Shown: piece by piece, positions 3,356 through 60,294 of the stretch
How the letters are laid out: each line of letters opens with the position of its first letter
Numbering within the stretch: the first letter of the stretch is position 1
Assembly: GCA_041661275.1 (NCBI GenBank)
Contig: JBAZUU010000002.1
Location: 33,206 to 97,205, forward strand
Length of the DNA: 64,000 nt
Direction: 5' to 3'
DNA from: Parcubacteria group bacterium
GTDB lineage: Bacteria; Patescibacteriota; Minisyncoccia; Moranbacterales; UBA2206
The notes under the pieces: generated by a model
Database searches by the model: none
The model's input: only the letters and a program-made list of their open reading frames with translations
What the model was told of the DNA's origin: nothing
Position numbers and translations under genes: made by a program

Positions 3356-4069
3356 ATGGAAAAAGAACTGGAAAATGTGCCAGCTCACGTAGCGATCATT
3401 CCCGATGGCAACCGCCGCTGGGCGAGAGGCAAGGGAATGAAGCCGTGGGAAGGGCACGAAGTGGGAGCGAAAAATTTTGAAGTTCTGATAAAGCATTCGC
3501 TTAAAAAAGGCATAAAGTGTCTGACTATTTGGGGTTCGTCCATAGACAATCTGACTAAACGTCCATTTGATGAAAAGCGGGCCCTTCTTGATATATATAG
3601 TCGGTATTTTAAAAGGCTGTTGGATGGCAACGAGATCCATGAAAATGAAGTGCAAGTGAATGTCATTGGTCGGTGGGAAGAACAGTTTCCGGAGTCGCTC
3701 AAAAAAATAATCTATGAAGCCATGGAAAAAACCAGGCACTACAAGAAAAGGATGCTTAATTTTCTTTTGGCTTACAGTGGAACTGATGAAATGATTTTGG
3801 CAATCGAGTGTATTAGCAGCAAGTATGAAAAAGGCGTGAAAATTACGCCGGAGCTGATAAAGGAAAACCTTATGACCAGGGGTTTACCACCGGTCGACTA
3901 TTTGGTGCGTACCGGTGGAGAACCGCATAACAGCACAGGATTTATGATGTGGGATATCGCTGACGCTCAATACTATTTCTCGCCCGAACTTTTTCCGGAC
4001 TTTGATGACAAAAAATATGAAGAAGCGTTGGAAGAATACGCGAGACGTCAGAGGAGATTTGGAGGCTGA
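3356..4069 (+). CDS. uppS: Undecaprenyl diphosphate synthase (cis-prenyltransferase)
   Basis: HVAIIPDGNRRWA signature and overall UppS-like sequence. Confidence 0.9.
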   Translation: MEKELENVPAHVAIIPDGNRRWARGKGMKPWEGHEVGAKNFEVLIKHSLKKGIKCLTIWGSSIDNLTKRPFDEKRALLDIYSRYFKRLLDGNEIHENEVQVNVIGRWEEQFPESLKKIIYEAMEKTRHYKKRMLNFLLAYSGTDEMILAIECISSKYEKGVKITPELIKENLMTRGLPPVDYLVRTGGEPHNSTGFMMWDIADAQYYFSPELFPDFDDKKYEEALEEYARRQRRFGG

Positions 4070-4185
4070 ATAAAATTTTCAATTTGAAATTTTAAATTTA
4101 AAATCAAATCTTAATTTAAAATTTTAAATTAAATCATTAAAAATTTATTTCAAATTTCAAATTAAAAATTTAAAATTTTAATCAC

Positions 4186-7112: not shown

Positions 7113-7746
7113 CAAATTTATGAGTAAGCTGGTTAATGAGTTGATAAAACAGGGATATCTTAAGTCCGACCTGATTATTGACGCCTTTTCTGAGATCAGC
7201 CGGGTTGAATTTGTTCCGCATGAATTGGAAAAGGAAGCAGAAGCGAACATCGCCCTCCCTATCGGTTATGGGCAAACCATTTCTCAGCCATTGACAGTGG
7301 CGTTTATGCTGGAACTTCTTGATCCAAAAAGAAGCCAAAATGTCCTGGACATTGGTTCCGGTTCTGGCTGGACAACCGCCCTTCTTTGCTATATAGTTGG
7401 GCGACATGGAAAAGTTACGGCTATTGAGCGAAAAGAGGAGCTTAAAAAAATGGGAGAAAAAAATACCGATAAATATGGATATCTCCGAAACGGAAAAGAT
7501 GGCATCGCTGAATTTTTTGTAGGCGATGGGACAAAAGGATTCAAAAAAAACGCGCCGTATGATAGGATTCTTGTATCTGCTTCGACTGAATGCGTCCCCA
7601 ACGATCTCAAAGAACAATTAAAAGTTGGAGGAAAGATGGTTGTCCCGCTTCGTCATAGTATTTGGTATATGGAGAAGAAAGGGGATAATGATTTTTACAA
7701 AGAAGAATATCCTGGGTTTGAGTTTGTACCGCTCATCGAAGACTAA
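7066..7746 (+). CDS. pcm: Protein-L-isoaspartate O-methyltransferase
   Basis: GYGQTISQP, VLDIGSGSGW and PYDRI motifs. Probable true start at 7120 (MSKLVNEL). Confidence 0.8.
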   Translation: MEREPATLSFRLWGYNKFMSKLVNELIKQGYLKSDLIIDAFSEISRVEFVPHELEKEAEANIALPIGYGQTISQPLTVAFMLELLDPKRSQNVLDIGSGSGWTTALLCYIVGRHGKVTAIERKEELKKMGEKNTDKYGYLRNGKDGIAEFFVGDGTKGFKKNAPYDRILVSASTECVPNDLKEQLKVGGKMVVPLRHSIWYMEKKGDNDFYKEEYPGFEFVPLIED

Positions 7747-7854
7747 AATTTGTAATTAGAAATTTTTAATTTTTAATGAATTTCTAATTACTAAATTTTA
7801 AAATTTTAAATTCAATAAAAATTTCAAATTAAAAATTAAAAATTACGAGTAAGG

Positions 7855-12088: not shown

Positions 12089-12727
12089 ATGACAGAGGAA
12101 AAAATAGAAGAAAAAAAGGAGAATGAACTAGTTGGTGAGCGTTATGCCGGAGTAGGCAGTTTTGTTCTGGAAATCATAAAAATTGTCATCCTGGCTTTCG
12201 TTATAATCGTCCCAATAAGGGTGTTTTTGTTTCAACCGTTTTTTGTCCAGGGAGCATCAATGGAACCCAATTTTGAGAATGGAGAATATTTGATCATTAA
12301 TGAGCTGGGATATAAAAGAACAAGTCTTGACATTAGCAATGCCAATCTTTTTACCGTAAAGCCGTGGAAAGAAGTAGCTCGTCAGGAGCCGGTCGTCTTT
12401 CGATATCCGCTTGATCCAAGCAAATTTTTCATCAAACGCGTAATTGGTCTTCCTGGAGAAAAAATTGAGATAAAAAACAGCCAAATAACGATATATAACG
12501 ACAGTCATCCTGATGGTTTTGTCCTTGATGAAAGCGCTTATCTTGCCAGTTCGGTAAAAACCAGTTCGGAAACAACGATATCACTAAAAAGCGACGAATA
12601 TTTCGTGATGGGAGATAATCGGCCATATAGTTCTGATTCTCGATCATGGGGACCGGTTCCTGAGAGAGATATTATTGGTAAGGTGGCAGTGAGAGCCTGG
12701 CCGCTAAACCGAATGTCATCGTTTTAA
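12089..12727 (+). CDS. lepB: Signal peptidase I
   Basis: GASMEPNF (SMEP box) and GDNRPYSSDSRSWG. Confidence 0.85.
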   Translation: MTEEKIEEKKENELVGERYAGVGSFVLEIIKIVILAFVIIVPIRVFLFQPFFVQGASMEPNFENGEYLIINELGYKRTSLDISNANLFTVKPWKEVARQEPVVFRYPLDPSKFFIKRVIGLPGEKIEIKNSQITIYNDSHPDGFVLDESAYLASSVKTSSETTISLKSDEYFVMGDNRPYSSDSRSWGPVPERDIIGKVAVRAWPLNRMSSF

Positions 12728-12846
12728 ATGAAAAATGTAAATCTCAAAATGAAAAATGACAATGCAAAATAAAAAATTTATAAATTCCCATTTTTAATTT
12801 TAATATGTCATTTTGATTTTTACTTTTTTATTTTTGATTTATTTTT
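12728..12846. repeat. AT-rich inverted-repeat element (family aaatctcaaaatga..aaaatgacaa / ttgtcatttt)
   Basis: Left arm aaatgtaaatctcaaaatgaaaaatgacaatgcaaaat, right arm atgtcattttgatttttac. A related copy is at 22126-22228. Confidence 0.5.
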
Positions 12847-12847
12847 T

Positions 12848-14215
12848 ATGGTTAAACCTAAAAAAACTAAGAAGCTGACAAAAAAGAAGCTGCCTATAAA
12901 AGCGGAAGAGCCTGTTGAGCCGCTTATTCTCCAGACTATCCGTGGGATGAAGGATATTTTGCCGGAAAACCAGCCATATTGGGAGCAGATAAGACGTGTG
13001 TCAGAAAGACTGGCGCGAGATTATGGTTTTTCCCGGATTGATACTCCCATTGTTGAATATACTAATCTTTTTGTCAGGAATATTGGAAAAGGGACGGACA
13101 TTGTGGAAAAAGAAATGTATAGTTTTGTGACCCGAGGCGGGGACAAAGTAACATTGCGCCCGGAACTGACGGCGGGGATTTGCCGCGCTTTTATCCAGCA
13201 TGGGATGCATCTTATGCCTAAGCCCTTGAAACTTTTTTCGACAGGTCCTGTCTATCGCTACGATCGTCCGCAGGAAGGAAGATATCGGGAACATTTTCAG
13301 ATAAATTATGATGCTTTCGGCGAGGAAGATTCAATTCTCGACGCGCAGGTGATCCAGATCGCCCACCGGATAATTCAAAATTTGGGAATCAAGTCTATCC
13401 AGATCCAGGTAAATTCTATCGGCTGTCCGACCTGTCGCCGCGACTACATTGAACTTCTGACCAATTATCTGGAATCAAAGAAAAATAAACTGTGTCAGGA
13501 CTGCAAAAGAAGGATGGAAGTCAATCCGCTGCGCGTTCTTGATTGCAAGGAAGATAAATGTATGCAAGTGGCTGCTTCCGCTCCGCAATCAGTTGATCAT
13601 CTCTGTGAAGAATGTCGCGTGCATTTTAAATCTCTTTTGGAATATCTGGACGAGCTTGATCTGCCCTATATCATCAATCCTCGTCTGGTGCGAGGCCTTG
13701 ATTATTATACTAAAACAGTTTTTGAGATCTGGTCTGGACTGGAAAATGGCAAAAAGAACGCCTTGGGCGGTGGAGGACGTTATGACCGACTTATCAAGAT
13801 GATGGGTGGAGAAGATACTCCGGCTATCGGTTTTGCTTTCGGGATAGAGAGATTGATTTTGGAGATGAAAAAAGTGCAAGCCAAACCCTATCGTCCGGCG
13901 CGACCAAAAGTATTTTTGGCGCAATTGGGAAACTTAGCTAAAAGAAAAAGCTTGAAACTATTTTCTGAACTGGAAAAAAATGGAATACTTCTGGCTGAAA
14001 GTTTTGGCCGAGGAAGCCTGAAATCCCAGCTTAAAGTGGCAAATAAACTGGGAGTGGAACTGACGCTTATTCTCGGACAAAAAGAAACCCTTGACGGCAC
14101 AGTGATTGTCAAAAATATGACCACTGGTGTCCAGGAAACAGTGGCGGCTGACAAGTTGGTGGACACGATAAAAAAGAAACTAAAAGCGGATAATGTGGTT
14201 ACTTATCATAACTAG
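12848..14215 (+). CDS. hisS: Histidyl-tRNA synthetase
   Basis: RGMKDILP, LRPELTAGI, GGGRYD class II motifs. C-terminal anticodon-binding region. Confidence 0.9.
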   Translation: MVKPKKTKKLTKKKLPIKAEEPVEPLILQTIRGMKDILPENQPYWEQIRRVSERLARDYGFSRIDTPIVEYTNLFVRNIGKGTDIVEKEMYSFVTRGGDKVTLRPELTAGICRAFIQHGMHLMPKPLKLFSTGPVYRYDRPQEGRYREHFQINYDAFGEEDSILDAQVIQIAHRIIQNLGIKSIQIQVNSIGCPTCRRDYIELLTNYLESKKNKLCQDCKRRMEVNPLRVLDCKEDKCMQVAASAPQSVDHLCEECRVHFKSLLEYLDELDLPYIINPRLVRGLDYYTKTVFEIWSGLENGKKNALGGGGRYDRLIKMMGGEDTPAIGFAFGIERLILEMKKVQAKPYRPARPKVFLAQLGNLAKRKSLKLFSELEKNGILLAESFGRGSLKSQLKVANKLGVELTLILGQKETLDGTVIVKNMTTGVQETVAADKLVDTIKKKLKADNVVTYHN

Positions 14216-19103: not shown

Positions 19104-19108
19104 AAAAG

Positions 19109-19173
19109 TTATCCACCCCGTAAAGTCGCCGAAGCGGCGACAACGGGGCAAGCACCCTAAAAAGTTATCCACA
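19109..19173 (+). promoter_or_regulatory. Two DnaA-box motifs (TTATCCACC at 19109-19117, perfect TTATCCACA at 19165-19173), each preceded by AAAAG, upstream of nrdR
   Basis: Exact 9-mers read in the sequence. The repeated 13-mer aaaagttatccac occurs twice, 56 bp apart. Confidence 0.5.
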
Positions 19174-19268: not shown

Positions 19269-19718
19269 ATGAATTGTCCATTTTGTAACAATCAAGAAAC
19301 AAAAGTAGTAGATTCACGGGATACTAGTGATGGAAAAATAACCCGCAGACGTCGTGAATGCTTCAAATGCACTGCCCGGTTTTCCACTTATGAAGAAATA
19401 GAGCTTTTACGACTGGCCATCGTCAAAAAAGACGGTTCAAAAGTTGATTATGATAAGTGTAAAATCGAAGCGGGGATAAAAAAAGCATTGGAGAAGCGGC
19501 CAATCACTCAAGAAAGATTTGCCAAACTCATGGGAGACATCGAATATGATATGCGGTCGATGGAAAAGCCGGAAATAACCACCAGAGAAATCGGAAAAAT
19601 GGTGCTCAAAAAACTGAAAGAACTCGACGAAGTCGCTTATGTGCGATTTGCGAGCGTCTATAAATCATTCGGATCGATAGAGAGTTTCAAGAAAGAATTA
19701 GATACGTTTGACAAATAG
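19269..19718 (+). CDS. nrdR: Transcriptional repressor NrdR
   Basis: MNCPFCNNQETKVVDSRDTSDGKITRRRRECFKC zinc ribbon plus ATP-cone. Confidence 0.9.
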   Translation: MNCPFCNNQETKVVDSRDTSDGKITRRRRECFKCTARFSTYEEIELLRLAIVKKDGSKVDYDKCKIEAGIKKALEKRPITQERFAKLMGDIEYDMRSMEKPEITTREIGKMVLKKLKELDEVAYVRFASVYKSFGSIESFKKELDTFDK

Positions 19719-22125: not shown

Positions 22126-22228
22126 TGTAAAAATCAAAAATCAAATCTCAAAATGACAAATCAAAATTAAAAAATGATTAAAATTTTGCATTTTACATTG
22201 TCATTTTTATTTTTGAGATTTTCATTTT
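22126..22228. repeat. AT-rich inverted-repeat element (same family as 12728-12846)
   Basis: aatgtaaaaatcaaaaatcaaatctcaaaatgacaaatc / ttgtcatttttatttttgagattttc arms. Confidence 0.5.
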
Positions 22229-22239
22229 AATTTTTTATT

Positions 22240-22941
22240 ATGAACATTGCTGGTTTCCAAAAACTAACCCTTATAGATTATCCGGGAAAACTGGCCACTA
22301 CTGTTTTCACGGTTGGTTGTTCTTTTCGTTGTCCATTTTGCCATAATCCGGAACTGGTTGATCGTGGATCATGGAATGTAGAACAAGACAGCAAAGAAAA
22401 AGAATTTTTTAAATTCCTGAAAATGAGACGGGGAACACTGGATGGAGTTTGCATCACGGGAGGGGAACCGACTATCCAGCCGGATATTATTGATTTTATA
22501 AAAAAGATAAAAAAAATGGGATTTGCCGTAAAGCTAGATACTAATGGTACTCGTCCAGACGTTCTGCGAAAGATAATCCGGGAAAAATTGGTGGATTTTA
22601 TCGCGATGGATATCAAAAATCATCCGGGGAAATATGACAAAACGACGGCCACCAAGGGAGATATTGACCGCATTAAATTAAGTGTGGAGTTGATTCGAAA
22701 CAGCGGCATTGATTATGAATTCCGAACAACAGTAGTTCCCGGTCTTCATGTTAAAGAAGACTTCAAAAAGATTGCTAAATGGCTCAAGGGTGCGAAATCA
22801 TATTGGCTGCAACGCTACCGCCAGTCCAAAATCCTTGACCCGACTTTGCCTAGCCGAGTCATAAAAGATAAGACTTTGGATTTGGAAAAAATATTAGAAA
22901 ATTTAACCCCGCATTTTGAGAATGTGGGGATAAGAGAATAG
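22240..22941 (+). CDS. nrdG: Anaerobic ribonucleotide reductase activating protein (radical SAM)
   Basis: CSFRCPFCHN CxxxCxxC radical-SAM cluster motif. Directly downstream of nrdD. Confidence 0.85.
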   Translation: MNIAGFQKLTLIDYPGKLATTVFTVGCSFRCPFCHNPELVDRGSWNVEQDSKEKEFFKFLKMRRGTLDGVCITGGEPTIQPDIIDFIKKIKKMGFAVKLDTNGTRPDVLRKIIREKLVDFIAMDIKNHPGKYDKTTATKGDIDRIKLSVELIRNSGIDYEFRTTVVPGLHVKEDFKKIAKWLKGAKSYWLQRYRQSKILDPTLPSRVIKDKTLDLEKILENLTPHFENVGIRE

Positions 22942-26980: not shown

Positions 26981-27811
26981 ATGCCTAATCGAAAAGCCCT
27001 ATATTTAATCCTCCTGACTCTTGCTATCATTGCCGCTATTTTGGCGGGGATTATTTGGTATCAGCAAAAACAAGAAATGAAAGTGGTTTTTTTTGATGTG
27101 GGACAAGGGGATTCCATTCTGATTGAGCAGGGAAGTAATCAGATTTTGATTGATGGTGGACCGGACGGAAAAAAAGTAATGGAAAAATTGGGCGAATATG
27201 TACCGTTTTGGGATAGGAATATAGAAGTGGTGATAGCGACTCATCCGGACGAAGACCATATTGACGGGCTCATTGATGTCATGGAAAATTACAATATTGG
27301 TGAAATAATCGATAATGGAGCTGATGTAGACAGTCAGGTTTATAAAAAATATCAGGACGTAATCTCGCAAAAAAATATCAATCGTATCGAGGGAAAATCG
27401 GGAATGGAAATAAAACTGGCGGATAATACAAAACTTTCTATTTTATCTCCTGATGGAACGCAAGACAAAAATAACCCGAAAGATACAAATCTTTCGAGCA
27501 TCGTTTCTAAACTAACTTTCGGTGAAAATAGTTTTTTATTTACTGGCGATTTTCCGACAGAAGGCGAGCAAGATTTATTTAGTAAAAATATCGATTTACG
27601 CGCGCGAGTGCTGAAAGTAGCTCATCATGGGTCAAAATATGCAACAAGTGACGAATTTCTAGATAAAGTTAACCCACAAGAGGCAGTAATATCCGTTGGG
27701 AAAAACAATAGATATGGACACCCGGCAGAGGATGTGATAAGCAGATTGGAAGCGCATAAAATTAATATAAAAAGAACCGATGTATCCGGAGATATCGAGT
27801 ATCAATTTTAA
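26981..27811 (+). CDS. Metallo-beta-lactamase fold protein, ComEC C-terminal-like (ComEC/Rec2-related)
   Basis: N-terminal transmembrane helix. FFDVGQGDSILIE, HPDEDHIDGL, LKVAHHGS MBL motifs. Confidence 0.75.
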   Translation: MPNRKALYLILLTLAIIAAILAGIIWYQQKQEMKVVFFDVGQGDSILIEQGSNQILIDGGPDGKKVMEKLGEYVPFWDRNIEVVIATHPDEDHIDGLIDVMENYNIGEIIDNGADVDSQVYKKYQDVISQKNINRIEGKSGMEIKLADNTKLSILSPDGTQDKNNPKDTNLSSIVSKLTFGENSFLFTGDFPTEGEQDLFSKNIDLRARVLKVAHHGSKYATSDEFLDKVNPQEAVISVGKNNRYGHPAEDVISRLEAHKINIKRTDVSGDIEYQF

Positions 27812-27912
27812 ATTTGAAATTTTAAATTTGAAATGAATTTTAAATGACTAAATTTGAAATTAAAGCATTAAAAATTGATTAAAAATTTTAAATTAAAAAT
27901 TAAAAATTACAG
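27812..27912. repeat. AT-rich 'aaatttgaaat(g)a' repeat element (family shared with 4076-4185, 7747-7851, 58365-58500)
   Basis: aatttgaaatgaattttaaatgac and terminal aaattaaaaattaaaaattac(g)ag shared with the copy at 7747-7851. Confidence 0.5.
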
Positions 27913-28337: not shown

Positions 28338-28835
28338 ATGGCCAACCGACATCTTTCACGCTCAATCGCCATGCAATCACTCTATGAGTGGGATTTTAAC
28401 GGACGCAAAAAGGAAAGTGTTGATGAGATAGTTGAAAAGAATATCAAAGAATTCGGACCAGGAATGGACGACACTAGTTTCGTAGAAAACCTTGTTAAAA
28501 GTACCATCAAAAATCAGGACAAAATTGATCCACTTATTGAAAAATGCGCTCCGGAATGGCCACTAGACCAAGTGACGATCGTTGACCGGAATATTTTGCG
28601 TTTAGGGATAAATGAACTGCTTTTTGGCAACTATGAAGAAGTGCCTCCTAAGGTGGCGATAAACGAAGCAATCGAGCTGGCCAAATCCTTTGGTGGGGAG
28701 AGTTCCGGAAGATTTGTCAATGGAGTTCTGGGAACGATATACAGGGAGTTGGGCGAGCCGATGAAGGATGATGACTCGAAAAAGCGCAAGGAAATAAGAG
28801 AGAAGGAAAAGGAGAATAAAAAAGAAGAAAAATAA
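28338..28835 (+). CDS. nusB: Transcription antitermination factor NusB
   Basis: [13 protein letters not shown]..., [28 protein letters not shown]-rich C-terminal tail. Confidence 0.85.
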
Positions 28836-28945
28836 TTAATTTTAAAATCACAAATTCAAAATTACAAATCCCAAATAAATTAAAAAATTACAATATTAAA
28901 ATTCAAAACAGTTTATAATTTTGGATTTTAGCCATTGTAATTTAT

Positions 28946-43509: not shown

Positions 43510-43637
43510 TCACTTAGACATTCGATGTCTAAGTAGAGATGTCTAAGCAAAAAATAAATCTTTTAGAAAAAATTAAAATCCCAGAGAGGAATAGATCCTT
43601 CCGGGATTTTTTATTTGTGTTTGAAATACTACACCAA

Positions 43638-43937
43638 CTATATGACCTCGTAGACGTGCCTCTCAGGGGTTGAATAATCCAACTCCCTGAGTTTTTGATT
43701 GAGATTTAAATCTTTGGCCACCCGTTCGGGTTGCCATTGATTACCATCTTCAGTTTGAAACAGGGGAACACCGGAAAATTTTTCCGCCCTTAGTTTCAGG
43801 GAAATCATCTGTTTGCTGTTGCCCTGCGGACGGAATATCCGGGCGCGGGGGATTATTTGCAGTTCATTCTTGTAGATGCAAACAATGTCCCCTTGTGCCA
43901 GTGACGAAAGTTGGTCATCAGGCAGATATATGAGCAT
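43638..43937 (-). CDS. Hypothetical protein (99 aa), divergent from mraZ
   Basis: ORF only. No motif recognised. Confidence 0.3.
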   Translation of the reverse strand: MLIYLPDDQLSSLAQGDIVCIYKNELQIIPRARIFRPQGNSKQMISLKLRAEKFSGVPLFQTEDGNQWQPERVAKDLNLNQKLRELDYSTPERHVYEVI

Positions 43938-44217
43938 AGATCTTCTCCTTTTGGCCTCTTTAGGCTCGTATGTGGTTAACGTTTTTTCAGGTACGAAGCA
44001 TAATCTTATATCAATTTTTACAAAAAGTCAAGCCGTTGTGGATACAGTGTGTATAACTTTTCCGTTGGTGGCTTATCTAAGCCATTTTTTGTTTTTTTAA
44101 AATTAAAGCAAAAGTGTTGACGGCTGTATCTTGGTGGGATAGAATAGAGAGGTAGTAAATAAAAGTGGGGGGAAGTGGTAAATTAAAAATACAAGCACCT
44201 CCGCCTTTTGCGTCCTT

Positions 44218-44652
44218 ATGTTTATAGGCGAATACCAGCATTCTATCGATCCGAAAAAAAGATTGGCTTTGCCATCACGTTTTCGGGGTGAGCTGAAAAA
44301 TAAAGTTGTTGTCACTCGTGGATTGGATAAGTGTCTGTTCGTATATCCTTTAAAAGTGTGGGAAGAGATTGCTGGAAAACTGGGAACACTGCCGGTCGGA
44401 GAATCAGCGACAAGAAGCTTTATCCGCCTGCAACTCTCCGGAGCGATCGATTGTGAAATTGACAAGCAGGGGAGGATTCTCATTCCAGATTTTCTCAAAA
44501 ATTATGCCGGACTCGATAGGGAAATTATAGTTGCCGGAGTATATAATCGTTTGGAAATTTGGGATGAGAAGAAATGGGCTGAGTATAAAAATAATGCAGA
44601 GAAAAATTCTGACGAAATAGCGGAACAACTCGGGAAATTGGGAGTTTATTAA
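44218..44652 (+). CDS. mraZ: Transcriptional regulator MraZ
   Basis: Duplicated DxxxR-type halves (SIDPKKRLALP / EIDKQGRILIP). First gene of the dcw cluster. Confidence 0.85.
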   Translation: MFIGEYQHSIDPKKRLALPSRFRGELKNKVVVTRGLDKCLFVYPLKVWEEIAGKLGTLPVGESATRSFIRLQLSGAIDCEIDKQGRILIPDFLKNYAGLDREIIVAGVYNRLEIWDEKKWAEYKNNAEKNSDEIAEQLGKLGVY

Positions 44653-57471: not shown

Positions 57472-58125
57472 TCATGAAAACGAAGCTACTCTTACTGAAT
57501 ACTTGTGAAGATTCTGGAGTTGTTTGTCATTAAGATTCTTGGATTTGCTTATGGCTTCCTGGATCAGGCCTTTTTCGAATTCTACTGAAGTTCCGATACG
57601 AACAGTGCCTTTTTTAGCTACTCTTTTCCGCAAATAGTCTTCAATATAGATCTTGTGTTCAGCAGTCAACGCTGAATCAGGGTTTTTTTCCAAATAATTA
57701 GCCAAAGCGCGTCTGGCTAATTTTGTGGTTCCGTCGCCTCTTGAGGCAGTTTCTACAAAAGACTTATCAGTTTCCTGGCTGGTAGCGGATGAGGTTACCT
57801 GGTCGGCTGGTTTGCTTTGAACAGCTTGCTGGTTGCTGGTAGTTCCATTGCTTTCTTCAGCGGCTTTACCCGATTCTTCATTGGTGGCACCTTCTTCCTT
57901 GTTGTCACTAGTTCCGGCGATCTGTTCTAAGACATTGCCTTGGTCGTTATTTCCTGCGAGTTCCGGAGTAGCTGATCTCTTAGAATAAGAATAAATTCCA
58001 CCAGCGATAACAACGACGATCAGTACGCTGATAATTATTCTCAAGTTGTCCCTTAGCCATTGTTTTGCACCTCCTTCTTCGAAATCTTCATTGAAATCTT
58101 CATTCTTTGGTTCTTGGTTTTCCAT
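57472..58125 (-). CDS. Hypothetical membrane-anchored protein with low-complexity linker
   Basis: Acidic N-terminus, one transmembrane segment, S/T/E-rich linker, structured C-terminal ~90 aa. No family recognised. Confidence 0.4.
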   Translation of the reverse strand: MENQEPKNEDFNEDFEEGGAKQWLRDNLRIIISVLIVVVIAGGIYSYSKRSATPELAGNNDQGNVLEQIAGTSDNKEEGATNEESGKAAEESNGTTSNQQAVQSKPADQVTSSATSQETDKSFVETASRGDGTTKLARRALANYLEKNPDSALTAEHKIYIEDYLRKRVAKKGTVRIGTSVEFEKGLIQEAISKSKNLNDKQLQNLHKYSVRVASFS

Positions 58126-58551
58126 TTGTTCACCTTCCTTTCTAGAGGATCCGCCTAATTTTTTTCAAGCAAAGCTCGAAAAAATTTTGGCGGAAAAATA
58201 AATTATTAAGGTGCTTACGTTGAAGCTTGCGGCTCTTGCGAGCGTCTCATATTAAATTCTAACAAAATCTGAACTGACGTCAACTAGACAAGCGGGTTAA
58301 AATAGGGCTTAATATGGGACATAGCACAGAATATTGGCGCCTAGGAAAGTTCCAGCTTCTTCGGAGTAATAATTTAAAATTTGAAATTTATAATTTGAAA
58401 TGAATTTGAAATGATTTAATTTTAAATTTAAAATTAAGATTTGATTTAAAATTATAAATTCTAAATTTAAAATTATTTTGAAATATTTTTTTCTGGTTGT
58501 GGTATTATCTTATGTTTTAGTTCTTTTTGAAAAAATATTTTTGAAAAAAAG

Positions 58552-58560
58552 TTATCCACA
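58552..58560 (+). promoter_or_regulatory. Perfect DnaA box TTATCCACA (with the same AAAAG prefix as the nrdR-upstream boxes) inside an ~800-bp AT-rich non-coding region
   Basis: aaaaagttatccaca read directly. The surrounding 58126-58922 has no convincing CDS. Confidence 0.5.
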
Positions 58561-58922
58561 GCAAAAAAAATAAATTTTTCTATTGCGTAAATATCATATT
58601 GGTATATAATTAAGTATAGAAAAATATTTTTCAAAATATTTTTTAAAACAAATGGTCGAAAACAAAAAAAGGATAAACGTATCCTATTAAAATAATTTAA
58701 ATTCCGCTTAAAATTTTTCGCGGAAAAATTAGAAAGGAAGGTGGAACCAAAATGGCTAAGAAAAAAAAGGCAGCAAAGAAGAAAAAAGCTACCAAGAAAA
58801 AGAAGAAACGATAGTCTTTTTTCTTGATATATTCTCGTTTGGCGCACAATTTTGCACCAGGGAGATACAAAAAACCCGTTCCGCTAAGCGTGATCGGGTT
58901 TTTTGCTTTTTATAAGCCAAAA

Positions 58923-59873
58923 TTATAGCTCAATTTTTGCTACGCGCCATCTTCCGGAAAGATCTTTGATAAAATTTATCTTGCATTTTGGAAGATATTT
59001 TTTTGCCATTTTTTCTATTTTATTTTTTTGTTCCGGACTGATTTCTAAAATAGTATATGGTATTTTGTATCTAGTATCTCGTATGATATTTTCGATCTGG
59101 ATAAATAATCTTTCATAGTGATCTAGCCCGTCCCTACCGGAAAGAAGGGCAGCTCCTGGTTCGAAATTTTTTACATCAGGTAGAGTGGAATTATAAATTT
59201 TTTTAGAGAGATAGGGAAGGTTGGCAACGATGATACAGCGACCAGTAATCAAGGAGCAATGATCAATAAAATATTTGATTAGATCTGTTTTAATAAATTT
59301 TATTTTATTTTGTAAATTATATTTTTTTGCATTCTTTCTGGCTATCACCAAAGCGTCTAAAGAAATATCCGTAGCATAATAATTTATTTTATCGTTCTTT
59401 GTTCTTTGTTTTTTGTTTGCTGCGAGCGAGATGATGATATTTCCACTTCCGGTTCCAATATCGATTACGTTTATGTTCTTAGGATTAAGCTTAATAATTT
59501 CTTCAACTAAGAGCTCTGTTTCCGGTCTGGGGATAAGTGTGTTTTTGTCCACTTTGAAATCCAAACCGTAGAATTCCTTGTGGCCGAGGATATACGCCAG
59601 GGGCTCATGGCTTTTTCGGCGACTTATGAAACTATCAAATTTAGCCTTTTGTGCTTTATTCAAAGATATTTCCGCCCCATCACCAAAAAATTTTTTAATA
59701 TTTTTCCTTCCATTGACATATTTTTTCGTTTTTTTGTTAGTTATTTTGGTGACGGGGTAAAGATGCGTCAAAACATACTCTCTTGACTTTTGGAGAATAT
59801 GGGCTAAGATTAGTTCTTGTTCGAAAGGGGGGAGTCTGAAATCGGACTTTCGGGGGGAGTTCTTTTTTTTCAT
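58923..59873 (-). CDS. prmC: Release-factor glutamine N5-methyltransferase (PrmC/HemK)
   Basis: VIDIGTGSGNIIISLA SAM motif and IVANLPY (NPPY-like) catalytic motif. Downstream of prfA on the same strand. Confidence 0.8.
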   Translation of the reverse strand: MKKKNSPRKSDFRLPPFEQELILAHILQKSREYVLTHLYPVTKITNKKTKKYVNGRKNIKKFFGDGAEISLNKAQKAKFDSFISRRKSHEPLAYILGHKEFYGLDFKVDKNTLIPRPETELLVEEIIKLNPKNINVIDIGTGSGNIIISLAANKKQRTKNDKINYYATDISLDALVIARKNAKKYNLQNKIKFIKTDLIKYFIDHCSLITGRCIIVANLPYLSKKIYNSTLPDVKNFEPGAALLSGRDGLDHYERLFIQIENIIRDTRYKIPYTILEISPEQKNKIEKMAKKYLPKCKINFIKDLSGRWRVAKIEL

Positions 59874-60236
59874 AGAAAGGATGAGAAAATGCCTAGAAAG
59901 GATCTAAGTAAGAAATTGGTAGCAAGCCTCCTTTCCAATTCAGAGGGAATAATGGGGAGGTTTTTTGAAAGGGTGGAGCGTATCGGTGGCTCATATAAAT
60001 CGGGTCACATCAAGTACAAGATTTTTCCAAAGGAGAGTGTGATATTTTCCTCTGACGCTCTTTACAGAGGGTTTGCCGATTTCTTCAGAGATTTAAATTA
60101 CATAGTTGATTACGAGGAATTTCAGGGAGATATCGAAGGAATGTTTATTGCTTGTGGTGGCAATACTATTTTCTTTCATATTGAACTGGATAGTAACCAA
60201 CTTGAGCTGGAATTGAACGCCTGGCTAAGAGACTAG
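59817..60236 (+). CDS. Hypothetical protein (start probably at 59889 MPRKDL...)
   Basis: Fills the 420-bp gap between prmC and prfA on the opposite strand. Followed by a bidirectional terminator. No motif. Confidence 0.35.
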   Translation: MFERGESEIGLSGGVLFFHRKDEKMPRKDLSKKLVASLLSNSEGIMGRFFERVERIGGSYKSGHIKYKIFPKESVIFSSDALYRGFADFFRDLNYIVDYEEFQGDIEGMFIACGGNTIFFHIELDSNQLELELNAWLRD

Positions 60237-60252
60237 GCGTGCGGCTTACACT

Positions 60253-60294
60253 AAAAAACTCCGGCAAAAATTCTTGCAATTCCGGAGTTTTTTC
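60253..60294. terminator. Bidirectional rho-independent terminator (serves prfA on the minus strand and the small + ORF)
   Basis: aaaaaactccggcaaaaattcttgcaattccggagtttttt. Confidence 0.75.

Follow-up and report, generated by a model that had tools for sequence, protein, structure and literature searches.

Evidence for a conserved divergent control region with a candidate DnaA-box promoter and a putative oligolysine micro-gene in a Moranbacteria-like genome

The stretch of DNA analysed here, 64,000 nucleotides in all (the window), contains a 797-bp gap at 58126-58922 that is its third-largest spacer, the median spacer being 103 bp. The gene pair prfA-prmC adjoins a small lysine-rich open reading frame (sORF) in this gap, which is convergent to prmC, and a 217-aa membrane-protein gene is divergent from the sORF. 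Because an independent ENA assembly has the identical sequence across all 797 bp, we do not regard the region as an assembly artefact; two short-read assemblies break at the AT-rich repeat at 58365-58480. A preliminary description of the gap had proposed a candidate replication origin or DNA-unwinding element or, alternatively, a DnaA-controlled locus, and the features on which it drew (DnaA box, inverted blocks, TATAAT, tandem units, sORF and terminator) were each recovered in place. Its statement that the ~800 bp are extremely AT-rich held for 58351-58670, where 100-bp windows are at ≤16% GC, but not for the left ~230 bp, which are of near-normal composition (estimated by eye) and carry the promoter and leader of the 217-aa gene. 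No tRNA or tmRNA was found in the region with ARAGORN, and Rfam searches of the whole window at the gathering threshold and of the region at E≤10 returned only sub-threshold chance matches (mir-3747 on a leader hairpin; Thr, Leu and Trp leader families on the terminator). The features are as follows.

57472-58125, minus strand: 217-aa membrane-protein gene, divergent from the sORF
58131-58142, minus strand: Shine-Dalgarno sequence GAAAGGAAGGTG of the 217-aa gene, kept in relatives
58150-58194, minus strand: hairpin with 21-nt arms in the leader of the 217-aa gene mRNA (inverted repeat and minimum-free-energy fold)
58208-58226, minus strand: conserved leader element GCTTCAACGTAAGCACCTT (11 loci)
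58256-58283, minus strand: predicted sigma-70-type promoter of the 217-aa gene, -35 TTGACG (58283-58278), 16-nt spacer, -10 TAGAAT (58261-58256); promoter scan, 10 of 12 matches
58292-58313, minus strand: conserved element upstream of this -35, TTAAGCCCTATTTTAACCCGC in the window and TTATTACGCCCTAAATAAGC in relatives, read off 11 loci in register
58365-58480, no strand assigned: copy of a dispersed, imperfectly palindromic AT-rich repeat ('aaatttaaaat' units), from alignment to other copies
58473-58847, minus strand: spurious 124-aa antisense 'shadow' ORF, F/L-rich and of low complexity
58481-58488 and 58533-58540, no strand assigned: two upstream copies of the palindromic octamer AAATATTT (enrichment)
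58544-58561, plus strand: extended DnaA box AAAAAAAG-TTATCCACA-G (consensus, conservation and fixed distance to the -10)
58583-58610, plus strand: predicted sigma-70-type promoter of the sORF, -35 TTGCGT (58583-58588), 16-nt spacer, -10 TATAAT (58605-58610), from conservation
58617-58751, plus strand: 5′ UTR of the sORF, about 133 nt (relatives' leaders, fold and motifs)
58752-58814, plus strand: sORF encoding MAKKKKAAKKKKATKKKKKR, 20 aa, stop TAG (orthologous sORFs)
58868-58905, both strands: bidirectional intrinsic terminator common to the sORF (plus) and prmC (minus), from folding and T-runs

The region is present and conserved in relatives; its absence or lack of conservation there had been named by the preliminary description as counting against the proposal. 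The same gene order, consisting of prfA-prmC, the convergent sORF, an AT-rich spacer, a divergent ~200-aa gene, DUF192 and two glycosyltransferase genes, is kept in 10 genomes, among which PrmC identity is merely 44-56%; DUF192 is missing at two loci of otherwise kept order. The minus-strand 217-aa membrane-protein gene would have its promoter and its structured leader in the left third of the gap. In 10 relatives the corresponding promoter is kept as TTGAC(G/T), a 16-17-nt spacer and a -10-like TA(A/G)AAT (TAATAT at one locus). The leader sequence at 58126-58250 folds at -36.6 kcal/mol (z = -3.6), with the hairpin at 58150-58194 forming in the minimum-free-energy fold, and relatives have different hairpins at the equivalent place. 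The leader element, in the form GCTTCAACG(A/T/C)AAGC, occurs in 11 of 11 loci and is unique in the window; the CACCUU of GCTTCAACGTAAGCACCTT is able to base-pair with the AAGGUG of the Shine-Dalgarno sequence of the same gene, a pairing seen in both the minimum-free-energy and centroid folds. The 12-mer GAAAGGAAGGTG has two exact copies in the window, one before the 217-aa gene and one before the sORF.

The right half of the gap would form a self-contained micro-gene. The sORF at 58752-58814 reads MAKKKKAAKKKKATKKKKKR and is preceded by the Shine-Dalgarno sequence GAAAGGAAGGTG at 58732-58743, and the hairpin and T-run at 58868-58905 that had been assigned to it as its own terminator are strong and also serve prmC, whose stop codon lies 18 nt away. 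On the plus strand 58815-58915 folds at -33.1 kcal/mol (z = -5.2) and on the minus strand 58860-58925 folds at -21.9 kcal/mol (z = -3.9); T-runs follow the hairpin on both strands, and relatives have equivalent hairpins. A simple terminator scan missed this hairpin because its loop exceeds 8 nt. The 20 residues of the peptide comprise 13 K, 1 R, 4 A and 1 T (70% Lys/Arg; charge +14). Orthologous sORFs of 20-45 aa, composed of K/A/V/T and likewise convergent with prmC at the same position, are present in 13 genome loci (L003-L010, L016, L017, L020, L021 and L039), and their peptides consist of AAKK/KKKA(T/V) repeats with residues of the K/A/V/T type only. In all close relatives a Shine-Dalgarno sequence stands 6-9 nt before the conserved ATG. 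The distance from ATG to stop is 20, 24, 30, 31 or 33 codons, always reaching a conserved TAGTCT in frame, so that ATG-to-TAG lengths are multiples of 3 without exception. Identical peptides are encoded by different DNA, with synonymous variation at 7 of 14 codons and, between two paralogues, at 9 of 22, although the first nine codons were set by the pattern used to search metagenomes, which biases this statistic for the shortest sORFs. Similar oligolysine sORFs of 13-45 aa occur in contigs of 33-73% GC. Judged from these orthologues and the in-frame conservation, the lysine-rich sORF is a conserved gene, 20-45 aa in length in relatives, and the earlier suggestion of a real sORF with its own Shine-Dalgarno sequence and terminator was borne out.

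Searches with the peptides gave no homologue. Pfam and NCBIfam at E≤10 contained no relevant family, a PDB sequence search with the peptide found no chain, and the 45-aa orthologue had no match at E≤0.001 in a protein-homology search of 5.8 billion clusters. An exact look-up of 20 sORF peptides likewise found none in a protein collection that may under-represent very short or low-complexity proteins. Since the peptide is of pure low complexity, homology is inseparable from convergence. The product, a polycation with the K/A composition of a histone H1 tail, would bind DNA, rRNA or other RNA.

We then compared the upstream region of the sORF among loci. A promoter of the form TTGC[AG]N, a 16- or 17-nt spacer and TATAAT is found in 11 of 11 loci, and in the window transcription is predicted to start near 58617. 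The near-consensus TTGCGT-16-TATAAT promoter would thus give an ~290-nt mRNA comprising leader, Shine-Dalgarno sequence, oligolysine ORF and terminator. The inverted AT-rich blocks reported around the TATAAT are present at 58524-58556 and 58619-58651, flanking 58605-58610. The octamer AAATATTT is concentrated in two zones around the promoter across 24 loci (29 observed, 3.5 expected), and AAAAATATTTT occurs just twice in 64 kb, both times within 58481-58540. The palindromes bracketing the promoter may constitute a second operator; the downstream pair could alternatively act as a 5′ RNA hairpin. Within the leader, two copies of AAATATTT (58619-58644) form an AU hairpin, followed by the conserved GGTCGAAAA at 58654-58662, a 9-mer unique in the window, and by hairpins at 58670-58685 and 58702-58725. 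Leaders of relatives, delimited by the same rule, are ~100-175 nt long. A GGTCG motif occurs at 20 of 24 loci and a further locus has AGTCGA; Rfam identified no family in the leader here or in those of 19 related loci. An enclosing stem with GGUCG at its 3′ side was significant in five distant loci only (P≤0.04), and we do not claim it here, as neither the window nor most of the close relatives have it.

The perfect DnaA box that had been reported is present as TTATCCACA at 58552-58560, with AAAAAAAG directly before it; the -35 TTGCGT follows the box at a distance of 22 nt and the -10 TATAAT at 44 nt. The window contains 3 perfect boxes against ~0.75 expected (an estimate from base composition); a single box is near chance level for 64 kb, and its significance therefore lies in conservation rather than in the window by itself. 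Of 11 Moranbacteria-like loci, 9 have the perfect box (L006 and L039 do not). Another 16 low-GC metagenome loci were collected using nothing but the coding pattern; a perfect box is present in the upstream 300 nt at 9 of them and missing at 7, and these 9 are all the perfect boxes in the 112.6 kb of the 16 loci. The spacing from box to -10 is 32-44 nt in 16 of 18 loci (37-44 nt for boxes in sense orientation, 32-33 nt for inverted ones) and 23-24 nt in the remaining two. The box centre lies near -61 here, at about -57 in other low-GC lineages and, inverted, at about -49 in the closest relatives. The flanks are conserved as well (AAAAAAG-TTATCCACA-G). High-GC lineages with similar sORFs showed no such association (1 box observed, 2.3 expected). 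Comparison thus establishes the promoter, the box with its fixed spacing, the GGTCG leader motif, the AAATATTT palindromes, the sORF and the terminator as shared, predicted elements of the locus. The alternative offered in the preliminary description, a DnaA-controlled locus, is strongly supported by this comparison, as box and promoter spacing are conserved across species. The same extended sequence recurs elsewhere in the window: the 13-mer AAAAGTTATCCAC occurs exactly 3 times in 64 kb, always in intergenic DNA, with the other two copies upstream of nrdR, and a one-mismatch copy of the extended box precedes mraZ. The nrd genes are a classic DnaA target in other bacteria.

From these data we consider, with a probability of roughly 0.6, that this Moranbacteria-like genome (Parcubacteria, CPR) has in the gap a conserved control region for divergent genes, with a DnaA-box promoter and an oligolysine micro-gene, and not a replication origin. 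Most likely the right half holds a candidate DnaA-controlled promoter for a putative nucleic-acid-binding, polycationic microprotein. Judging from the match to consensus, DnaA would bind the box and so couple transcription of the microprotein gene to the status of replication initiation. A single DnaA box usually gives weak or monomeric binding. We lean towards activation rather than repression as the predicted effect because the site is clear of the -35 and -10 and because roughly one helical turn separates the two arrangements; since the sORF promoter is already near consensus, repression would fit as well.

The box itself could be accounted for in two other ways. That the region is a chromosomal origin or a DnaA-dependent unwinding element, where DnaA binds the box and melts the adjacent AT repeats, was suggested by a perfect conserved box beside ~300 bp at ≤16% GC; the region is conserved among relatives, and adjacency to dnaA is not universal for origins. 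We nevertheless regard this idea as highly improbable. The 797 bp contain 1 DnaA-like site at ≤2 mismatches, compared with 3.2 expected from shuffles, placing the region at the 13th percentile of 800-bp windows for box density, with no box cluster and no second box near 58552-58560 at ≤1 mismatch. Bulk GC skew is positive throughout the window, without a sign change, and remains so over 8.3 kb beyond the window upstream and 2.5 kb beyond it downstream, so that it keeps its sign over about 75 kb around the gap; third-position skew, expressed in plus-strand terms, is 0.104 and 0.055 for plus- and minus-strand genes on the left and 0.242 and 0.163 on the right. In 9 other genomes the skew sign is equal on both flanks of the homologous box, and ~84% of coding bases left of the gap are on the plus strand, co-oriented with the right side. 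A tblastn search of the window and of loci L001-L161 with domains III-IV of E. coli DnaA gave no dnaA, Pfam scans of the largest window ORFs gave neither DnaA nor DnaN, and there is no dnaA in the extra 10.8 kb outside the window, where the called genes of flank loci L162 and L165 include no DnaA family. The 'aaatttaaaat' tandem units are indeed present, as AATTT(G/A)AAAT at 58371-58475, but the AT block that adjoins the box is a dispersed repeat and probably not a locus-specific unwinding element: 58365-58480 aligns over ~105 nt with 27805-27910 and 4065-4180 (z = 14-15 against shuffles), similar AT blocks lie at 7 sites in the window, and the distance of the box is fixed to the promoter and not to the AT block. 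A consensus box beside very AT-rich DNA is shared with bacterial oriC, whereas the box cluster, skew switch and dnaA linkage are not. This removes a false origin candidate and indicates that a lone perfect DnaA box beside AT-rich DNA can be a transcriptional site. Alternatively, TTATCCACA with its flanks might be a DnaA titration site without effect on the sORF, or the operator of another protein. Conservation of the flanks beyond the 9-mer would agree with this, and in E. coli single high-affinity boxes scattered over the chromosome titrate DnaA (PMC12371093). However, titration would require neither a set distance from the -10 in lineages that have diverged widely nor an inversion of the block that keeps about the same helical face, and 9 of 9 bases match the universal DnaA consensus in at least 18 independent loci; we consider both variants quite unlikely.

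Other explanations concern what the transcript encodes. It might be a non-coding, A-rich small RNA that is itself conserved while the sORF goes untranslated, given that the leader is long (more than 2× the ORF length) with the conserved GGUCG and hairpins, and that AAR-rich sequence is open in all frames, which makes an ORF alone weak proof. We find this very unlikely in view of the strong Shine-Dalgarno sequence ahead of the conserved ATG, length changes in multiples of 3 up to the conserved stop, interruptions of the lysine run by in-frame GCN, GTN or ACN codons only, and the same peptides despite synonymous changes, also at 55-70% GC, where an A-rich tract is very unlikely; nor was an Rfam family found. 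A tiny ORF that contains runs of a single codon and has a terminator behind it also resembles the leaders of amino-acid operons, and the Thr, Leu and Trp matches over the terminator, although weak, point the same way. A lysine-codon leader peptide attenuating a downstream gene is nonetheless barely credible here, as those Rfam scores are far under gathering thresholds, the same strand downstream is empty (beyond the terminator comes the 3′ end of prmC, which is convergent), and downstream genes vary between lineages. A more serious contender, which we still think unlikely, keeps the same architecture but makes the product a ribosome-associated basic peptide like bS22, bL37, bTHX or eL41, with a leader through which the gene would be controlled autogenously, in the manner of ribosomal-protein operons. 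In 7 Bacteroidetes-like loci a similar sORF comes immediately after rpmA (L27), other low-GC lineages have one ahead of hpf (2 loci) or of secA (6 loci), and the sORF here is beside prfA-prmC. Genes for ribosomal proteins typically have such a long conserved leader and such a very strong Shine-Dalgarno sequence, and bS22, a 30-33-aa, highly basic helix that was long overlooked, is a precedent for such a protein escaping notice (PMC7797042). Against this, there was no match to a PDB chain or to NCBIfam/Pfam models, among which any models of the known small basic ribosomal proteins would be found; the predicted DnaA control points to DNA replication; the gene neighbourhood varies by lineage; and the K/A repeat composition is closer to histone H1 tails than to known ribosomal microproteins.

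A DnaA-controlled micro-gene has counterparts in known systems. In B. subtilis, DnaA boxes control sda, which encodes a small checkpoint protein, and further promoters that DnaA regulates are those of dnaA itself (autoregulation), nrdAB and the mraZ/ftsL operon. The present locus resembles them in having a consensus box beside a sigma-70/sigma-A promoter of a very small ORF and, by analogy, in the presumed logic of coupling expression to replication-initiation status, and the extended box, as noted, also precedes nrdR and, with one mismatch, mraZ. It differs from sda in having one box rather than a cluster, in belonging to a CPR lineage, in encoding a 20-aa oligolysine product unlike Sda and in that DnaA binding is predicted. 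With bS22 (mycobacteria, Bacteroidetes), bL37, bTHX and eL41 the sORF shares a length of 20-45 aa, extreme basicity, strong expression signals, omission by gene callers and, in some lineages, related sORFs adjoining rpmA or hpf; its peptide, in contrast, has no sequence match to them and contains K/A only rather than their mixed R/K/H/L, and there is no ribosomal-protein operon near the sORF in the window. Low-complexity K/A(/P/T/V) repeats such as AAKK and KKKA are likewise found in H1-like proteins (Chlamydia Hc1/Hc2, Pseudomonas AlgP, the C-terminal tail of mycobacterial HupB and the N-terminal domain of Streptomyces DdbA). The repeat copy number of the sORF varies between relatives, as it does for the Hc2 pentamers (PMC2848022). 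In composition the sORF peptide is like the DNA-condensing H1 tails, but it is 5-10 times shorter and lacks a folded or conserved domain; Pfam and NCBIfam at E≤10 gave no match to the Hc1, HC2 or linker-histone families.

A literature search found nothing specific on a CPR DnaA regulon or on an oligolysine microprotein. The candidate sites at nrdR, the sORF and possibly mraZ provide a first, testable sketch of a DnaA regulon in the CPR, which are mostly uncultivated, and the box, promoter, AAATATTT palindromes and GGUCG motif are sharply defined cis-elements that can be tested with recombinant DnaA and reporters. Tentatively, and at somewhat less than even odds, the sORF may be one member of a very widespread class of oligolysine microproteins, 13-45 residues long and essentially without annotation, each with its own promoter, long leader, strong ribosome binding site and terminator, found from 33% to 73% GC and wired to DnaA by one positioned box in CPR-like low-GC lineages. 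If so, the peptide would be a replication-coupled, genetically encoded polycation, which in ultra-small cells would be the peptide equivalent of polyamines or histone tails, or alternatively a new universal component of ribosome or nucleoid; oligolysine peptides that were functional across phyla would represent a new small component of one or the other.

Such a class would have stayed hidden because gene callers skip the sORF or annotate its antisense shadow. The long minus-strand ORF in the gap had been judged not credible, and we agree, as it is of low complexity and has no Pfam match; this 124-aa ORF is an antisense shadow of the lysine codons. For this genome both the ENA and the JGI/IMG pipelines call the shadow ORF as a protein, while the protein collection holds none of the sORF peptides. 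That a microprotein gene was missed and an antisense artefact called in its place is a general warning for the annotation of lysine-rich sORFs.

The source genome of the window is low in GC (about 40%) and of Parcubacteria/Moranbacteria-like CPR type: the closest relatives of its PrmC are from MAGs labelled Parcubacteria, Moranbacteria or Patescibacteria (44–56% identity), and a neighbouring protein is recorded in NCBI as 'MAG: hypothetical protein [Parcubacteria group bacterium]'. The AT-rich gap at 58126–58922 is bounded by two minus-strand genes; only two spacers in the window are longer, and the median spacer is 103 bp. An independent ENA contig is identical to the window over all 797 bp of the gap and 11.3 kb around it, and two short-read Logan assemblies break at the AT repeat in the gap. 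Conserved and variable parts were distinguished by comparison with ten genomes of common gene order, namely prfA-prmC, a convergent sORF, an AT-rich spacer, a divergent gene of ∼200 aa, DUF192 (missing in two loci) and two glycosyltransferase genes. The left third of the gap serves the divergent gene (217 aa in the window), the right half holds an entire micro-gene, with promoter, 5′ UTR, Shine-Dalgarno sequence, sORF and a 3′ UTR with terminator, and the AT repeat lies between them. The features are:

57472–58125, minus strand: gene for an uncharacterized membrane-anchored protein of 217 aa, left of the gap, its start codon abutting the gap
within 58208–58313, minus strand: conserved element upstream of the 217-aa gene promoter, TTAAGCCCTATTTTAACCCGC in the window and TTATTACGCCCTAAATAAGC in relatives
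58283–58256, minus strand: sigma-70-type promoter of the 217-aa gene, TTGACG-16-TAGAAT, conserved in relatives
58481, 58533, 58622 and 58634: four copies of the palindromic octamer AAATATTT
58552–58560: perfect DnaA box, TTATCCACA
58583–58588 and 58605–58610, plus strand: sORF promoter, −35 TTGCGT, 16-nt spacer, −10 TATAAT
58654–58662, plus strand: leader motif GGTCG, here GGTCGAAAA
58752–58814, plus strand: 20-codon sORF, preceded by the Shine-Dalgarno sequence GAAAGGAAGGTG
58868–58905: bidirectional terminator in the sORF 3′ UTR, common to the sORF and prmC
58923–59873, minus strand: prmC, right of the gap and preceded by prfA

The preliminary description had recognized the box, the ORF with its strong Shine-Dalgarno sequence and the terminator, here a strong hairpin with T-runs, and all three were recovered; the AT-rich inverted blocks that it placed around TATAAT flank that hexamer on both sides, and its tandem 'aaatttaaaat' units are present as AATTTRAAAT.

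Judged by its conservation, the sORF is a real gene. In 13 genome-collection loci, prmC is likewise followed by a convergent orthologous ORF, of 20–45 aa, and a fourteenth has a related ORF; all of these encode K plus A, V, T, P or R only, and each follows a strong Shine-Dalgarno sequence. Despite lengths of 20, 24, 30, 31, 33, 35 or 45 codons, ATG and stop are always in frame, and the stop lies within a conserved TAGTCT in most of the 11 Moranbacteria-like loci (the window and the ten genomes). The coding pattern M-A-x-K-K-K-(A/V)-A-K was matched by at least 120 loci in a scan of metagenome contigs; among the matches listed, about 75 carry sORFs of 13–65 aa, on contigs of 33% to 73% GC. By eye, an SD-like purine-rich stretch precedes most of those inspected and a GC-rich hairpin follows many. 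The peptide MATKKKAAKKKKH is encoded at 7 loci by 4 different DNA sequences, which show synonymous variation at 7 of 14 codons; identical peptides are also encoded by two paralogous copies in one contig that differ at 9 of 22 codons and by two 26-aa copies that differ at 8 of 27, although these counts are unbiased only beyond the first nine codons, which the search pattern fixed. None of 20 sORF peptides was present in a collection of 15 billion proteins, and no homologue was found in Pfam, NCBIfam, PDB or a large protein database. The collection holds instead the antisense 124-aa ORF at 58473–58847 (minus strand), which both the ENA and the JGI/IMG pipelines annotate as a protein. As the preliminary description judged, this ORF is not credible: it is F/L-rich, matches no family and is an antisense shadow of the lysine codons. 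Annotation of AAR-rich sORFs is systematically exposed to such shadow calls.

TAG is the sORF stop in 17 of 29 CPR-type loci (24% among window genes), usually as TAGTCT; the observation concerns 58812–58817 in the window and the comparison loci L003–L010, L020, L050, L052, L090, L107 and L136. RF1, the prfA product, reads UAG, and the sORF adjoins prfA-prmC in the Moranbacteria group; the loci are phylogenetically non-independent, and the link may be coincidence.

From its placement across loci, the DnaA box is part of the sORF promoter. The core promoter, TTGC[AG]N-16/17-TATAAT, is found in 11 of 11 Moranbacteria-like loci, followed by a 5′ UTR of about 133 nt (about 100–175 nt in relatives), and a perfect box in 9 of them. 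Eight close relatives carry the box, as TGTGGATAA when read on the sORF strand, with 10 nt between it and the −35 element downstream; the window has the entire unit, AAAAAAGTTATCCACAG, in the opposite orientation and 22 nt upstream of that element. A set of 16 low-GC metagenome loci not linked to rpmA was retrieved solely by coding sequence. In 9 of them a perfect box, oriented as in the window, lies no more than 300 nt upstream of the ATG, and the 112.6 kb of the 16 loci contain no other perfect box; a tenth metagenome locus with a box, L050, is in the GC ≥0.5 class. The box ends 37–44 nt from the −10 element in nine sense-orientation loci including the window, 23–24 nt in two more (L082 and L154) and 32–33 nt in inverted loci, and its flanks are conserved (AAAAAAG-box-G). 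No association was detected in high-GC lineages (1 observed vs 2.3 expected).

The gap had also been proposed as a replication origin or DNA-unwinding element; every available test spoke against an origin. Even with two mismatches allowed, it contains a single DnaA-like site, as first described, vs 3.2 in local-composition shuffles (13th percentile among 800-bp windows). Bulk GC skew is positive over the entire window and does not turn at 58 kb. Third-codon-position skew, in plus-strand terms, is 0.104 (plus-strand genes) and 0.055 (minus-strand genes) left of the gap and 0.242 and 0.163 right of it; the skew stays positive for 8.3 kb before and 2.5 kb after the window, and in nine other genomes the 4.7-kb flanks of the homologous box agree in sign. 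The plus strand carries 84% of coding bases left of the gap and also the genes right of prfA. Neither dnaA nor dnaN was found in the window, nor dnaA by tblastn in the fetched loci L001–L161. Because the box keeps a fixed promoter distance and no skew switch occurs, we therefore read it as a transcription-factor site, not an origin signature; the other half of the proposal, a DnaA-controlled locus, draws strong support from the comparison between loci. Finally, the 'aaatttaaaat' block is not locus-specific: it aligns over about 105 nt with two other blocks, 27805–27910 and 4065–4180 (z = 14–15), and seven blocks of this type occur within the 64 kb:

4065–4180, 7745–7850, 27805–27910 and 58365–58480: dispersed intergenic AT-element family, about 105 bp
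12721–12870, 22131–22250 and 28801–28930: further AT blocks

The elements are nearly pure A/T with internal palindromes, lie mostly between co-directional genes, and may be AT-only terminators, insulators or MITE-like repeats.

The locus is comparable to DnaA-controlled promoters such as those of B. subtilis sda and the nrd genes. The searchable literature yielded no account of oligolysine microproteins of this kind, nor of a DnaA regulon in CPR bacteria. In the most likely mechanism, DnaA would bind the one high-affinity box, immediately ahead of the core promoter, and thereby couple synthesis of the microprotein mRNA to replication-initiation status. We lean towards activation, because the box lies outside the −35 and −10 elements and the shift between the two natural arrangements is close to one helical turn. 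Repression of the kind seen at dnaA promoters may also apply, since the promoter is already near consensus. The product carries a charge of +14 in 20 residues, with a histone-H1-tail-like composition, and most plausibly binds nucleic acid. Its composition and size are like those of bacterial H1-like K/A-rich proteins and of small basic ribosomal proteins, but all sequence-membership tests failed for both. The proposed DnaA control and the composition suggest DNA as the target, while neighbours such as rpmA, hpf and prfA-prmC, and the precedent of bS22, suggest the ribosome.

Two further layers of control are probable, one at the AAATATTT palindromes and one, post-transcriptional, in the leader. 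The octamer is found 29 times around the sORF promoters of 24 loci (3.5 expected), at +17 to +47 and −70 to −125 relative to the −10 element, and its four window copies are the 'mirrored AT repeats' noted earlier. The downstream pair is predicted to fold as a 5′-terminal RNA hairpin; the upstream pair lies ahead of the inferred start site and hence outside the transcript, so that a role at the level of DNA is favoured. GGTCG occurs in 20 of 24 loci (AGTCGA in one more) at varying distances from start site and ATG, and a stem enclosing it reaches significance in certain distant loci, though not in the window.

The 13-mer AAAAGTTATCCAC has exactly three copies in the window (about 0.004 estimated by chance), two upstream of nrdR and one at the sORF, with a one-mismatch copy upstream of mraZ. 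Shared sequence suggests that the nrdR and sORF boxes form a small DnaA regulon. The nrdR pair, extended boxes AAAAGTTATCCAC(C/A) 56 bp apart at 19104–19173, lies between ftsZ and nrdR (19269–19718), just ahead of the ftsZ terminator and nrdR promoter. Three one-mismatch box-like sites on the minus strand, AAAAGTTATACAC among them, occur at 43971–44061 in the gap 43510–44217 upstream of mraZ (44218–44652), with GTGGG/GTGGT repeats of MraZ-operator type near 44130–44180. The mraZ/dcw operon is under DnaA control in B. subtilis.

On the other side of the gap, the 217-aa gene promoter reads TTGAC(G/T) in relatives, with a 16–17-nt spacer and a −10-like TA(A/G)AAT (TAATAT in one locus). The leader carries an invariant GCTTCAACG(N)AAGCAC and a variable hairpin; in fold predictions its CACCUU can pair with, and so could sequester, the gene's own Shine-Dalgarno sequence. 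Together with the upstream element, the conserved leader points to a regulator of a conserved CPR membrane protein.

In the window genome, prfA and prmC are split by a 419-bp insert (59874–60292), whereas they are nearly contiguous in the relatives checked (about 11 nt apart in L003 and L004). The insert carries an opposite-strand ORF of 139 aa (59817–60236), whose first 57 nt overlap the prmC start and which had no Pfam match; an ENA call covers 115 aa of it.

Related sORFs occur in other settings. Seven Bacteroidetes-like contigs (L060, L094, L099, L108, L120, L128 and L158) carry a 23–57-aa MATKKKAAKKAAPKK... sORF directly downstream of rpmA (L27); these contigs lack a Shine-Dalgarno sequence, the leader (ACTAACATTAAATTCTAACAAA) is conserved and the sORF has a terminator of its own. 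High-GC contigs L042, L053, L062, L070, L092, L152 and L155 carry two oligolysine sORFs as tandem or nearby paralogues, for example MPKRKKAVKKGGKKKATKKGKRK then MAKKKKAAKKKKK, each inspected copy with its own Shine-Dalgarno sequence. A similar sORF, MPMKKKKAAKKKSVKKAAKKKKKR preceded by GGAGGTGA, lies at 7528–7602 of L041, a contig with the label Woesearchaeota (DPANN archaea); unless the bin is mislabelled, oligolysine peptides also occur in ultra-small archaea.
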